Source of the DNA: a virus | Lineage: Duplodnaviria; Heunggongvirae; Uroviricota; Caudoviricetes | Length of the DNA: 22,815 nt | IMG/VR virus record: IMGVR_UViG_2609459792_000001 | Direction: 5' to 3' (one strand) | Shown here: positions 1,431 through 6,237 of the stretch, one piece after another | Layout of the letters: each line of letters begins with the position of its first letter | Numbering within the stretch: position 1 is the first letter of the stretch | Notes under the pieces: model-generated | Database searches by the model: none | What the model saw: only the letters and a program-made list of their open reading frames with translations | What the model was told of the DNA's origin: nothing | Position numbers and translations under genes: made by a program

Positions 1431-4400
1431 TCAGCTGATACTGATGCCTGCGGTGGCTTTCTTCATCACCACAACCAGCAAATCGCTGATACTTGCTGTG
1501 GGATACCAGTCATTTACCAGCCATGATGACACCGAAAACTCCAGCGTCATGTGGCCGCGACCAGCTGGCATATCAATAACACCACTGTAAATCAGCGTAT
1601 TATCCAGCGCGGTACGGTTATAAATTTCAGCACCGTTTTTCCGTACTATCAGGCGGCATGACGAATAAATATCGTTATTCTCCCTCTCATGTTTAGCGCC
1701 GCTGAATGCCACCGCCGGAATAACAATCTGCCGGTCAAACGGCTGATCGTCATAAACCCTGACGGTGATGGTCCCTGATGGCCACCGTTCCGGTGCACGG
1801 GAGTCCCGGGGGAAAGCTTTGCCCACTGTTTTAACGAGATCGCCTTCAATCTGGTTGGCGGACAGTTTTCCCAGAACCCGACAGTTCTCGTTAATCGTGA
1901 CGTTGTTGAGCGTCCCGGAGTTCGCATTCACGTTACCGCTGATATCGGCATTTTTCGCCGTCAGCCGCCCGTCGGTGTCAGGGAAAATCCGGAGGATTAC
2001 CGCCGCTGGTAATGGTGGGAGCCGTCAGGCGTTTCAGGAACACGTCGTTCATGAATATCTGATCGCCCTGCCAACAAACATCGGCTTTGTGTTGCCATTC
2101 GCAGGATTAATCATCGCAATCCTGTCTGCCGCCAGCAGCACCTGACTCTGCATGCCGTCGGGGTGTTCTCAATACCGGCACCATACCCGCATATAAAGGC
2201 GTCCGTCCTGCATCTGCTGCAGCTTCACAGCCCACATGCTGTTCAGGTTATTATTTGTATCAACCTGAACCTTCTGTATCTGCTGATGGCACTCTGGTCT
2301 TCCAGTTTCTTATTGACGGTCTGGTGATTTCATTGCTGACATCCGTAATGGACGTCCTGATTTCAGCCAGGTCAGGCGCAAGCTGACCGTTATCAATCTG
2401 CGTCCACAGCTCCTGAGCCAGATGGGTTTTCCCTATCTCGCCTTTGAAAAAATCCAGATAGCCGGATGCGTCATCACTCGGCTGACCAACAGCCTCCACG
2501 AATGCCGATTTGCCAACGGTGTTCACACTGCGAACGTAAAAATAATAATTATGGCCCGGCCTGATATTGATACTGGCGGCTATCCAGTACAGCGCCGTCC
2601 AAGATAGCGGCTGTGGTTTCAACCTGCCTGATATCCGCAATCCGCTTTTCCGAGAACCAGAACTCAAACTGTACCGTCGGTCATAAACGCAAGATGCGGC
2701 GTGGCGGTTATCTGAAAATAGCCCGGCGTCAGCTCAACCGCGACGGCCTGCGGTGCGGCAATCCGGAACGATACCGAGCCGGATCGCCCTGCTGCCCCAC
2801 CATTTACGCCCGGACGTCAGCTGTACCCCAGCGCCAGTTGGTGAAGCGTAGTGGTTTCCGTCGTCCGGGCCGTGCTGACCAGCCGCTCACTGCCGTCATC
2901 CGCTGCCACGGTCAGGCGAAGCAGGAAGCTCACGCCCTTCACCACCTTCGGCGTGTCCCAGCGCGCCAGCACCTGATATTCCCCGCTGTCTGCGGTGACT
3001 TCGGCAGTCAGGTGCTGCACTGCTGGCGGCGTGACACCATTCACCGTGCCGCTCTGGTCACCGTCAAAGTGCGCCCCGTTATCCACGATGGCTTCTTTTT
3101 CCGGTACATGCTGCACGGCAGTGATGGCATACGTGCCGTCATCGTTCTCACGGATACTCACACAGCGGAACAGGCGCTGGCGCAGCGTCGGCAGCTTCAG
3201 CCCCCACACACTGTATTCTGCAACGCCGTCAGGAACCCGGTTCACTTTCACCTTAAGTCCGTCGGTGACGGACTGGACCTCCACGCTGACCGGATTCCCC
3301 TGCCCGTCAACCAGGCTTATCAGCGTGGTGCCGGAGGATGGCAGCGTGATTTCACGGTCGAGCGTCAGCGTCCGGGTCTGGCTGTTCACCGCCAGCACAC
3401 GCCCGCCGGTGCTGATCCCCGCATAGTCATCATCACAGATTTCAATGACATCGCCCGGTACATGGCGAAGCCCTTCTGCGCCCACGCTGAAGTCCACGGT
3501 CTGCGTCTCCAGCAGCTCCGTTTTAATCAGCCACAGCCCGGCGCGGTGTGCCTGCCCCCGGCTGGTACAGCCAAAGGCATCCATCTTCGTGACGTTACGA
3601 CCGTAACGGACAATGGCCTGCGTATCCTCCACAAGCTCTGTCGCCGTTTCCCAGCCGTTATCCGGGTCAATCCAGTTCACCTCAACGGCATTATGGCGGT
3701 CCTTCAGGGCGCTGAAACTGTAGCGGAACGGCGCGCCATCATCCGGCATCACCACATTACTGCGGTTATAGGTCCACACCTTATCCGATGGCCGGTCCTG
3801 CACGAACGTCAGCGTCTGCCCGTTCCATACCGGCATACAGCGCATCGCCGAGCAGAAATCACTGAGCACATCCCACGCCTTGCGCTGCGTGGTCAGGTAC
3901 GCATTACAGGTGATACGCGGCTCCGTGCCACCAAAGCCATCCGGCACCGACTGGTCGCAATTCTGGCCGATGACATACAGCGCCCATTTATCCACATCCG
4001 CCGCACCAAGACGTTTCCCCATGCCGTAGCGCGGATGGGTAAGCATATCCCACAGACACCAGGCCATGTTGTTGCTGTATGCCGGTTTTAACGTTCCGTC
4101 CCAGATACCGCTGTATTGTCGCGTCTGCGGGTTATAGTTCGACGGCACCTGCAGAATGCGCCCGCGAAGATGATAATTACGGCTCACCTGCTGGCTGCCG
4201 AACTGCTCCGAATCCACCTGTACGCCGACCAGTGCCGTGTTCGGGTAGCACTGTTTCACATCGATGATTTCGGTGTATGACGACCAGAGCGTTTTGTTCT
4301 GCAGCTGGTCTGTGGTGCTGTCCGGCGTCATCCTGCGCATCCGGATATTAAACGGGCGCGGCGGCAGGTTATCCACCACCACCGAGGCCAGATACTGTGA

Positions 4401-4880
4401 AGTGGTTTTGCCCTTAATGGTGATGTCTTTTTCTGTCACCCAGCCACCGTTACGCTGTATCTGAACCAGCAGGCGGACTTCCGACGGATTCCTGTCCCCC
4501 TTTGAGGTGGTTTCCACCAGTGCCTGCACACCGAAGGTAAAGCGCAGACGGTCGATATTTGCAGACGTGATGGTCCGGGTGATCGGCGTGTCATATTTCA
4601 CTTCCGTACCCAGCACCGTCTCGGAGCCGGAGGATTCAAATCCCTCCGGCGGAGTCTGCTCCTGCTCACCTGCCCGGAACACCACCGTGACACCGGAGAT
4701 GTTGGTATTCCCCTCACTGTCCAGCACCGGCGTACTGTTCAGCAGCACGCTTTTTAATCCATCCACCGGACCTTCAATCGGCCCTTCACTGATGGCATCA
4801 ATCACACTCAGCAACTGCGTGGATTTCAGGTTGTCCTTCGCTTCGCGCGGGGTATGCCCCTTACTGCTGCCTTTACCCAT
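1431..4880 (-). pseudogene. J: Tail tip / host specificity protein J, disrupted by multiple frameshifts
   Basis: Three collinear J-like ORFs on the minus strand: 2817..4880 (687 aa, MGKGSSKGHTPREAKDNLKSTQLL..., ends at TGA 2817..2819), 2260..2667 (135 aa, ...[36 protein letters not shown]...) in a different frame, and 1431..1931 (166 aa C-terminal receptor-binding region) back in the frame of the first. Total span 3450 nt, close to lambda J (1132 aa). Between 1931 and 2820 the J-like reading hops between frames repeatedly. Confidence 0.85.
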
Positions 4881-4940
4881 TCGTCATGCTCCATAAACGA
4901 CAAAACCGCCCGGAGGCGGTTTCACATAAAACATTTTGCA

Positions 4941-5597
4941 TCAGCGACCAATCACCACAACCTGACCACCATCCCCTTCGTCTGCCGTGCTGATCTCCTG
5001 AGAAACCACCCGTGACCCCACGCGCATTTCACCGTACAGAACAGGCAGAACATTGCCCTGGGCAACCATGTTATCCAGTGAGGAAAAATAGGTGTTCTGT
5101 TTGCCGTTATCCGTTGTCTGTGTGCGGGGAGTTCTGGCTTTCGGTGCCAGCATCTGCGCCACACCGCCAAGTATCATACTGGCACCGAGAGAAAACAGAT
5201 ACCGGTATACACGCCGCAATGGCTGCCCCCCAGCTGCAAGGGTTCCGGCATATAGCAACCGCAATGACGGCCGCCCCCAGCACAACCTGAAACACACCGC
5301 CACTTTTGGCCCCGGCAGACGCGGCACGATATGGATCACGGCACCATTTGCCAGCGGCTCATTAAGACGGGCAGATAATTCGGTTTCACCTGCATCACGC
5401 CCGGCAATGCGTACCTGATACCAGCCGTCGCTCAGTTTCTGACGAAACGCCGGGAGCTGTGTGGCCAGCGCCCGGATGGCTTCGGCCCCCGTTTTCACAC
5501 GAAGGTCGATGCGGCGGCCAAATCGTTGCAAATCCCCGTAAAGGCAGATGCGTGCCATGCCCGGTGACGCCAGAGGGAGTGTGTGCGTCGCTGCCAT
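4941..5597 (-). CDS. I: Tail tip assembly protein I (internally frame-scrambled but open)
   Basis: 218-aa ORF with lambda gpI-like N-terminus (MAATHTLPLASPGMARICLYGDLQRFGRRIDLRV...) and C-terminus (...VLPVLYGEMRVGSRVVSQEISTADEGDGGQVVVIGR). Overlaps the K 3' end by 103 nt, exactly as in lambda. The middle segment (about 5150..5320) reads as out-of-frame Arg-rich sequence while the Gly/Ala-rich hydrophobic segment is in another frame (ORF 5107..5295). Confidence 0.8.
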   Translation of the reverse strand: MAATHTLPLASPGMARICLYGDLQRFGRRIDLRVKTGAEAIRALATQLPAFRQKLSDGWYQVRIAGRDAGETELSARLNEPLANGAVIHIVPRLPGPKVAVCFRLCWGRPSLRLLYAGTLAAGGQPLRRVYRYLFSLGASMILGGVAQMLAPKARTPRTQTTDNGKQNTYFSSLDNMVAQGNVLPVLYGEMRVGSRVVSQEISTADEGDGGQVVVIGR

Positions 5598-6237
5598 TTG
5601 TCGGTATACCTCTCTCGTTTGCTCAGTTGTTCAGGAATATGGTGCAGCAGCTCGCCGTCACCACAGTAAATGGCGGCATGATTCGGCACCGATGAACCAA
5701 AACAGCACAGCAGCACATCGCCCGGCTGCGCCGCTGACAACGGCACCTGATACAGCCCTGTGGCCTCCAGATTATCCAGATAGAGATTCTGACCGTGACG
5801 CCACCAGTCATCCTCGCGATGAAAATCCGGCATCTCAATCCCCGCCAGATGGTAAGCATCCCGGAACAGCGTGTAACAGTCCGTCACCCCGTGCTCAAAG
5901 CGCCGCCCGGTGAGATGCGGCACACAGCGGAATTTATGAATCGTCCCCCGGCAGACCAGCCACCACGGCAAATCACTCTGCACCTGCAGCCGCCGGTCGG
6001 CCTCACTCAGCCAGGGCAGACCACCGGGGTGGCTGTGGACCAGCGCCACAATCTCACCCTGCATTTCTGCCTCAGCCAGTCCTCCGGCGACATACGGAAA
6101 TACGCCTCCGGCTCACCGGAGATATTCACGCAGGGAAAATATCTTTCCCCCTCCGGCGTGCTCACCACGAAGCCGCACGACTCCGCTGGCGCACATCGCC
6201 GGGCGTGCGCCAGAATCGCTGATTCTGTCTCTGTCAT
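5495..6237 (-). pseudogene. K: Tail tip assembly protein K (JAB/MPN + NlpC/P60 peptidase), frameshifted near the 5' end
   Basis: C-terminal ORF 5495..6064 (189 aa, MQGEIVALVHSHPGGLPWLSEAD... with JAMM HxH..S..D and NlpC/P60 Cys/His). An upstream ORF 6007..6237 in a different frame (MTETESAILAHARRCAPAESCGFVVSTPEGERYFPCVNISGEPEAYFRMSPEDW...) starts 6 nt after L. The frames are offset by one nucleotide near 6070; the lambda-type start MSPEDWL (ATG 6093) is in the upstream frame. Confidence 0.75.

Follow-up and report, generated by a model that had tools for sequence, protein, structure and literature searches.

Deletion-only frame disruptions in the tail-tip genes of a lambdoid prophage contig as a probable consensus artefact of merged module copies

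The frame disruptions in the tail-tip genes K, I and J of the lambdoid prophage sequence analysed here are most likely (probability about 0.9) a consensus artefact, produced when a draft assembly merged differing copies of a repeated tail-tip module, and in the real prophage all three genes are probably intact. The window, by which we mean the whole stretch of 22,815 nucleotides, is a contig from the draft genome of E. coli strain 2-427-07_S1_C3 (reads of sample SRS568190), which comprises 145 contigs and was assembled from Illumina 100-bp reads with MaSuRCA 2.3.2, a method that merges near-identical repeats. One end of the contig lies in a side-tail-fibre gene and the other in the lysis region, as expected of contigs broken at prophage repeats. 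The GenBank CDSs KDY85924.1 and KDY85921.1 show the truncated J frames seen here, so the deletions are part of the deposited record and were not added afterwards. The coordinates of the features are collected in Table 1.

Table 1. Features of the window, with positions counted from its first letter.
Feature	Position	Strand	Remarks
Whole window, contig JNRJ01000050.1 of GCA_000704625.1	1..22815	.	
Gene J (tail-tip host-specificity protein)	1431..4880	-	tblastn frames; called fragments of 687, 120 and 166 aa
J deletion cluster	1972..2850	-	against the E. coli GE3 allele: 30 bases missing, 0 insertions, 0 substitutions
J missing bases, part 1 (about)	2850, 2848, 2841, 2826 (3 bases), 2821, 2816, 2808, 2801, 2795, 2778	-	
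J missing bases, part 2 (about)	2751, 2748, 2738, 2688, 2681, 2610, 2599, 2324, 2289 (2 bases)	-	
J missing bases, part 3 (about)	2287, 2286, 2191, 2183, 2160, 2071, 1989, 1972	-	
Deletion-free stretch within the J cluster	2330..2590 (260 bp)	-	L001, L002 and L011 differ from GE3 at 0-1 positions
Gene I (tail assembly protein I)	4941..5597	-	ORF open; protein unique
Garbled patch in I	5198..5320 (about)	-	switches frame at least 4 times
Gene K (C40/NlpC-P60 tail-tip peptidase)	5495..6237	-	76-aa and 189-aa ORFs, split by one missing base
K frameshift site	6066..6078 (missing base ~6072)	-	window CTG-AGGCAG; known allele types CTGCAGGCAG, CTGAGTGCAG
L, M, H, T, G, V, U, Z, FII, FI, E, D, C/Nu3, B, W, A, Nu1	6243..20194	-	all intact against ECCTRSRTH03

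Over 88% of its length the window is 95.5% identical at the nucleotide level to Escherichia phage Lambda, and its late genes, all on the minus strand, follow the order of the lambda late operon (Nu1 to J, lom, stf) from Nu1 to L, with lambda lengths except in FI and H. Identical in length to their lambda counterparts are Nu1 (181 aa), A (641), W (68), B (533), C (439), D (110), E (341), FII (117), Z (192), U (131), V (246), G (140), M (109) and L (232). FI has 131 aa against 132 in lambda, and the measured lengths thus agree with the initial annotation, which had described the head and tail-shaft genes as keeping lambda lengths with FI one codon short; H, which was absent from its list, has 859 aa against 853. 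Exact copies of this contig's H occur in 178 blocks of the collection. Relative to E. coli ECCTRSRTH03 (L004), no gap was found across window positions 6073-22815, a stretch of 16.7 kb that takes in L, the lysis genes and everything between them.

All indels relative to the closest references are confined to K, I and J, as the initial annotation had proposed for the frame disruptions. About 40 indel events fall within 21% of the contig, which excludes uniform error and upholds the earlier argument from their non-random placement. The description of three frame-disrupted genes needs one correction: no stop codon cuts I, whose reading frame stays open and is internally out of frame.

The pattern is clearest in J, whose 3450 nt fall 30 short of the 3480 nt of the intact GE3-type allele. 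In E. coli GE3 this allele encodes 1159 aa and occupies 1704996-1708475 of NZ_CP012376.1. Between window positions 1400 and 3047, pairwise alignment with a heavy mismatch penalty to the intact GE3 allele (L003) gave 30 deleted bases, no substitution and no insertion. MAFFT had been misleading for this cluster, fusing single-base gaps into blocks, and was replaced by the pairwise alignment. The best complete-genome matches to window positions 1900-2900 are 97.1% identical over 1031 bases against 1001 in the window, so that 30 gaps explain the entire difference.

The deletions coincide with real differences between alleles and do not occur where the alleles are identical. Among 13 reference alleles, 25 of the 30 lie at polymorphic sites, against a background of 22-30% (binomial P ~1e-9). 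The remaining five (AAC at 2826, G at 2821 and C at 2801) show no variation in these references, which counts against the artefact reading. From 2590 to 2860, deleted sites coincide with 12 of the 15 differences between alleles L001 and L003; from 1960 to 2330, every one of the 11 deletion events falls where the L002/L004 alleles depart from L003. Also against the artefact reading, the window keeps the L003 base at 12-14 further sites of the latter interval at which L002/L004-type alleles differ. The intervening stretch from 2330 to 2590 is free of deletions; several alleles there match GE3 or differ at one base, which would leave nothing to drop. One parental allele is therefore of GE3 type, and the second is matched in part by L001 and in part by L002/L004. 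A synthetic second allele, in which each deleted site was filled with its alternative base, reached 98.6% identity with its best complete-genome match, and no single real allele differing from GE3 at exactly the 30 sites was found, so that the artefact reading has to suppose either an allele not yet sampled or more copies than two.

Gene I and gene K are disrupted as well. The patch in I appears to combine two or more allele types, with single bases lost here and there, its translation running in frame, out of frame as 'LPGPKVAVCFRLCWGRPSLRLLYAG', in frame as 'TLAA', out of frame as 'GGQPLRRVYRY' and in frame again from 'LFSLGASM'. At the DNA level the best identity of the patch is 88.7% among 14,455 copies of I in 5,426 complete E. 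coli genomes, and the I protein is a singleton among 5.8 billion proteins, the next best being 82% identical. In K, the window string CTGAGGCAG equals the two known allele types, CTGCAGGCAG and CTGAGTGCAG, overlaid with two tied columns dropped.

These lesions are private to one record. A 68-mer spanning several of the J deletions was absent from genome, viral and metagenome contig collections, and the J, I and K deletions were found in no other record among complete E. coli genomes, three contig collections and an exact-protein index; recurrence of the indels in independently sequenced genomes, which the initial annotation had named as the observation that would speak against an artefact, was thus not seen. 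In the exact-protein index the 687-aa J fragment and the 185-aa I protein each occur on JNRJ01000050.1 only, and the 166-aa J fragment occurs also on one unrelated 2.5-kb remnant contig without the deletion region. Isolated one-base deletions in J and stf, mostly where the references differ, are present in the draft of E. coli p0305293.14, which we take to be from the same centre as the window.

The affected block is also repeated where its flank is not. Across 5,426 complete E. coli genomes, and thus not in the isolate itself, the K-I-J block occupies 16,248 places (median 3 per genome), compared with 5,240 (median 1 per genome) for a head block of equal length. Chimerism across the whole of K-I-J was considered and set aside, as a greedy mosaic test, which divided the window into 73 segments and the natural alleles L004 and L015 into 76-77, does not discriminate the window from natural alleles. 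Outside the three clusters K-I-J is no more mosaic than natural alleles, and the merging appears local rather than block-wide; the best match to window positions 2900-4400 (98.1%) fits ordinary J mosaicism.

We propose that the tail-tip module L-K-I-J was present at least twice in the DNA that was sequenced, either because one genome carried two lambdoid prophages or because the library was a mixture of two strains. Where they were only a few percent apart, the copies could have been drawn into one multiple alignment by the overlap-based MaSuRCA (Celera/CABOG consensus on super-reads), in which agreeing columns would be called normally and disagreeing columns lost, perhaps by each mismatch being laid out as an insertion/deletion pair in which the gap wins the tie. 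A literature search for a published account of such a column-dropping error in MaSuRCA/CABOG found none. Stripped ambiguity codes were ruled out as a source of the gaps, since the GenBank CDSs carry the shifted frames and some events drop an extra adjacent base.

As to where a second copy may have come from, Table S1 of the isolate study lists 2-427-07_S1_C3 with a genome of 5.20 Mb and the serotype calls O9/O103/O112ac:H16/H21, and its siblings from the same sample and of the same ST with 4.71-4.80 Mb and without O103 or H16; O103:H16 is the serotype of later isolates from the same child. The larger genome and the extra serotype calls (O103, H16) suggest that the sequencing library held two strains, candidates for which are an ST155 strain and an O103:H16 strain of ST2175. 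In the same table the accession prefix is spelled JNJR; GenBank has JNRJ.

The initial annotation had offered three origins for the lesions, and each has something in its favour. Random errors of sequencing or consensus calling, in a stretch where coverage or quality was locally low, would suit a short-read draft of 145 contigs and the clustering of the errors. However, random errors would not pick polymorphic sites, would not spare the 260 bp in which the alleles are nearly identical, and would include substitutions. Indels in Illumina reads are rare outside homopolymers, yet 17 of the 30 deleted bases lie outside any run and 10 in runs of two; moreover, as the tail-tip module is multi-copy, its coverage should be high rather than low. 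We regard random error as very unlikely, and the suspicion of an assembly problem stands in kind rather than in detail, the cause probably being excess copy number and not low coverage or quality. Less probable again is genuine pseudogenisation, in which relaxed selection on the adsorption genes of a domesticated prophage would have left frameshifts in K, I and J. E. coli genomes often carry defective lambdoid prophages whose tail genes are broken, and the disruptions all lie in one functional module; but base substitutions far outnumber indels among spontaneous mutations in E. coli, and relaxed selection predicts substitutions beside the indels, whereas the lesions in the 1.65 kb compared with the intact allele are deletion-only. 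The deletions also sit at allele-polymorphic sites, none is common to any relative, and the remaining prophage is pristine. The marks of natural decay, namely accompanying substitutions, placement independent of variable sites and lesions in related genomes, are all missing.

A recombination patch from an already degraded relative is harder still to credit, even though lambdoid J genes are highly mosaic and the best reference switches many times across K-I-J of the window. No degraded donor was found in the collections searched (complete E. coli genomes and three contig collections), and a degraded patch, too, predicts substitutions, where the 1.65 kb shows none and its 30 deletions lie at polymorphic sites. 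Since the patch is an intact allele from which bases alone have been removed, the donor would need an equally implausible deletion-only history. The deletions might finally be real if two diverged J copies had recombined in one cell and heteroduplex mismatch processing had removed a base each time; we know of no pathway that removes a base per heteroduplex mismatch, and put the chance of this close to nil.

If the disruptions stem from merged copies, they very probably reflect neither new phage biology nor a real feature, and JNRJ01000050.1 is no basis for classing the prophage as tail-defective or domesticated. Where a prophage module is repeated, draft assemblies of this type can render the differences between its alleles as successive frameshifts, the resulting frames are then deposited in protein databases as truncated or chimeric proteins that occur nowhere else (here KDY85924.1, KDY85921.1 and the singleton I protein), and pseudogene counts can be inflated. 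The signature can be screened for, as deletion-only lesions without substitutions at sites that are polymorphic among intact alleles, and the pattern seen here also hints that this library may hold two strains.

Compared with known systems, the block has the gene order, gene sizes and Pfam families of the lambda tail-tip module K-I-J (NLPC_P60; Lambda_tail_I; FNIII-A_GpJ, Phage-tail_3, Ig_J and Ig_GpJ_C), from which it differs in that its J is of the 1159-aa GE3 type and lambda's of a 1132-aa type, and in that the deposited sequence is frame-broken. The cryptic prophages Rac, DLP12 and Qin are likewise lambdoid with apparently non-functional tail genes. Cryptic prophages carry large deletions, IS insertions and substitutions common to related strains, whereas the window's head and tail-shaft genes are intact and its lesions consist of deletions alone, lie at polymorphic sites and occur in one record only. 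There is also a likeness to collapsed-repeat or mixed-haplotype errors, in which a multi-copy region shows errors where its copies diverge, contigs stop at repeat boundaries and the resulting genes are private to one record; such errors usually give a chimeric base or an ambiguity code, whereas here the disagreeing column appears to have been deleted altogether, which would produce the frameshifts.

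An exact match to its truncated J product identifies the window as the whole of contig JNRJ01000050.1 (22,815 bp) of assembly GCA_000704625.1 from E. coli 2-427-07_S1_C3, an isolate from a study of Tanzanian children that was sequenced on an Illumina HiSeq 2000 with 100-bp reads and assembled with MaSuRCA 2.3.2, and for which 145 contigs are listed in Table S1 (PMC6222053). The same table prints the accession as JNJR, the actual record being JNRJ. The window is 95–97% identical to phage lambda and many E. coli prophages; its late operon is lambda-like, and the gene order is given from the high-coordinate end. 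The low-GC (43–44%) accessory insert upstream of Nu1 is missing from lambda at that position, and its two ORFs align with the YlcI/YnfO-family and DUF1398 genes annotated in the prophage of ECCTRSRTH03.

Features of the window, listed from its high-coordinate end
Feature	Position	Strand
Lysis genes	high end of window	minus
Low-GC accessory stretch	20200–21800, between lysis genes and Nu1	
ORF in low-GC stretch	20858–21283	plus
ORF in low-GC stretch	20583–20816	plus
Nu1	19649–20194	minus
A, W, B, C/Nu3, D, E, FI, FII, Z, U, V, G, T, H, M	after Nu1, in listed order	minus
H (tape-measure protein)	7267–9846	minus
L	6243–6941	minus
K	5495–6237	minus
I	4941–5597	minus
J	1431–4880	minus
lom	764–1363	minus
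stf (start only)	after lom	minus

Lambda gene lengths from Nu1 to L, claimed in the initial annotation with FI one codon short, were borne out (FI has 131 aa, lambda 132 aa), the further exception being H, which that annotation did not list (859 aa, lambda 853 aa); also borne out was the restriction of indels to K, I, and J, with zero gaps over 6073–22815 in alignment with the ECCTRSRTH03 prophage. Such clustering far exceeds what chance would give. A single missing base near 6072 splits K, J is broken into fragments of 687, 120, and 166 aa, and the frame of I stays open with its interior out of frame. Apparent deletions in the window at 11718–12844 were rejected as a fault of the STEC346 reference (NZ_CP091044.1), a complete genome in which FI, Z, and U are annotated as frameshifted and with an internal stop, and whose extra bases relative to the window lie mostly in short homopolymers and look like long-read consensus error.

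Over the J cluster, the window is an intact allele minus variable columns. Compared with the J allele of E. coli GE3, positions 1400–3047 show no substitutions, no insertions, and 30 missing bases, all between 1972 and 2850. The best complete-genome matches to 1900–2900 have 97.1% identity over 1031 versus 1001 bases, so that the 30 gaps make up the whole difference. Of the 30 missing bases, 25 coincide with variable sites in an alignment of 13 reference J alleles, against a background of 22–30% (binomial P ~1e-9), and five are monomorphic in this small set. Within 2590–2860, 12 of the 15 differences between the APEC E18005 and GE3 alleles are deleted positions, and all 11 deletion events within 1960–2330 lie where both the STEC346 and the ECCTRSRTH03 alleles differ from GE3; the 260 bp at 2330–2590, where several alleles equal GE3 or are one base off, contain no deletions. 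Some allele differences were kept as a base and not dropped, and no single real allele differing from GE3 at precisely these 30 sites was found. Downstream of 1972 the other allele types are at least 7% divergent, and upstream of 2850 the window leaves the GE3 type, which places the merged stretch where copies differ by ~3.4% and are thus overlappable without being identical.

The K frameshift lies at CTG-AGGCAG in the window, where the two reference allele types read CTGCAGGCAG and CTGAGTGCAG; if these are overlaid with a gap in each and the two tied columns are dropped, the string of the window results. We propose that a mismatch between merged super-reads would be laid out as an insertion/deletion pair, in which the gap would win a one-to-one tie and both bases would be removed, so that one base would be lost on balance. 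This scheme fits the K site exactly and also fits sites that lost a neighbouring base as well (e.g., 2286–2289); no publication describing such consensus behaviour was found in the literature. In I, a patch at ~5198–5320 switches frame at least four times in translation, no stop being met, and has the look of a hybrid between two or more allele types, with single-base losses scattered through it. Among 14,455 I copies from 5,426 complete E. coli genomes, the best match to this patch is 88.7% identical. In a set of 5.8 billion proteins, the I product is a singleton (next best 82%), whereas exact copies of H from the same contig occur in 178 blocks of the public collection, making this tail-shaft type very common. 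Outside the three clusters, the mosaicism of K-I-J is no greater than that of natural alleles. Three singleton I proteins from other NCBI drafts (P0047, P0048, and P0049) have internal duplications of ~60–100 residues (290 and 247 aa), which appear to be assembly errors of a different type in this repeated gene.

In complete E. coli genomes, a 5.1-kb K-I-J query matched at 16,248 places (median 3 and maximum 15 per genome), compared with 5,240 (median 1) for a head query of equal length. The block L-K-I-J-lom-stf is common, at ~95% identity, to the window and the prophages of APEC E18005 and GE3, which have quite different heads. Through this repetition and sharing across head types, the tail-tip module is the part most likely to have been present twice in the sequenced DNA. 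In loci of relatives with an identical H (L007, L009, L011, about 1–5700, and L016, 1–1300), an element replaces or interrupts the head region from Nu1 to E. The element encodes a D5-type primase, SSB, E-like capsid and D-like decoration proteins of its own, AlpA, and a HEPN and GmrSD pair, and is followed by a truncated E (254 aa). It resembles a phage satellite that forms capsids and carries defence cargo, located inside a lambda-like prophage.

The second tail-tip copy may derive from a second prophage in the same genome or, instead, from a second strain. In Table S1 the isolate has a size of 5.20 Mb and the serotype calls O9/O103/O112ac:H16/H21, its two ST155 siblings from the same sample have 4.71 and 4.80 Mb and neither O103 nor H16, and isolates obtained from the same child three months later are O103:H16 ST2175 (PMC6222053). 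The assembly thus exceeds its siblings by ~0.4–0.5 Mb, and this extra size, the serotype calls of two types, and the later O103:H16 isolates together suggest that the library was mixed or the child co-colonised at baseline; PMC6222053 does not comment on the pattern.

Natural decay under relaxed selection in a domesticated prophage would need 30 deletions with no substitution or insertion, located at polymorphic sites and confined to a single record, and is rejected, as is a recombination patch from a degraded relative, which would make the same demand. A search for the same indels in related genomes found the J deletions in no complete E. coli genome, and a 68-mer across several of them had no match in the genome, viral, and metagenome collections. 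This contig is the only one with the 687-aa J fragment, whereas the 166-aa fragment has one further occurrence, on an unrelated 2.5-kb remnant contig without the deletion region. That contig (Logan SRR17303779_277, 2490 bp) carries Clp protease, capsid, cement, and T fragments back to back with the C-terminal J piece and appears to be either what is left of a prophage after heavy deletion or a misassembly. The deletions are present in the deposited record, as the GenBank CDSs KDY85924.1 and KDY85921.1 have truncated frames, which also excludes stripped ambiguity codes.

An assembly origin, also raised in the initial annotation, is supported in the more specific form of a consensus of at least two merged copies; low coverage with random error does not explain the data, leaving the preference for polymorphic sites, the spared near-identical stretch, and the absence of substitutions without account. 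The K-I-J disruptions are very probably not a real phage feature, and the use of the case is as a caveat for databases and pseudogene counts, with little beyond. Another draft genome, that of E. coli p0305293.14 (contig APZZ01000094.1), presumably produced at the same centre, has isolated deletions of single bases in J and stf (about 10192, 13054, 13192, and 13239), three of the four at sites where references differ, and a 1-base insertion at ~2129 in V; these leave J in two pieces, V truncated, and stf fragmented, which suggests that the error mode is systematic.
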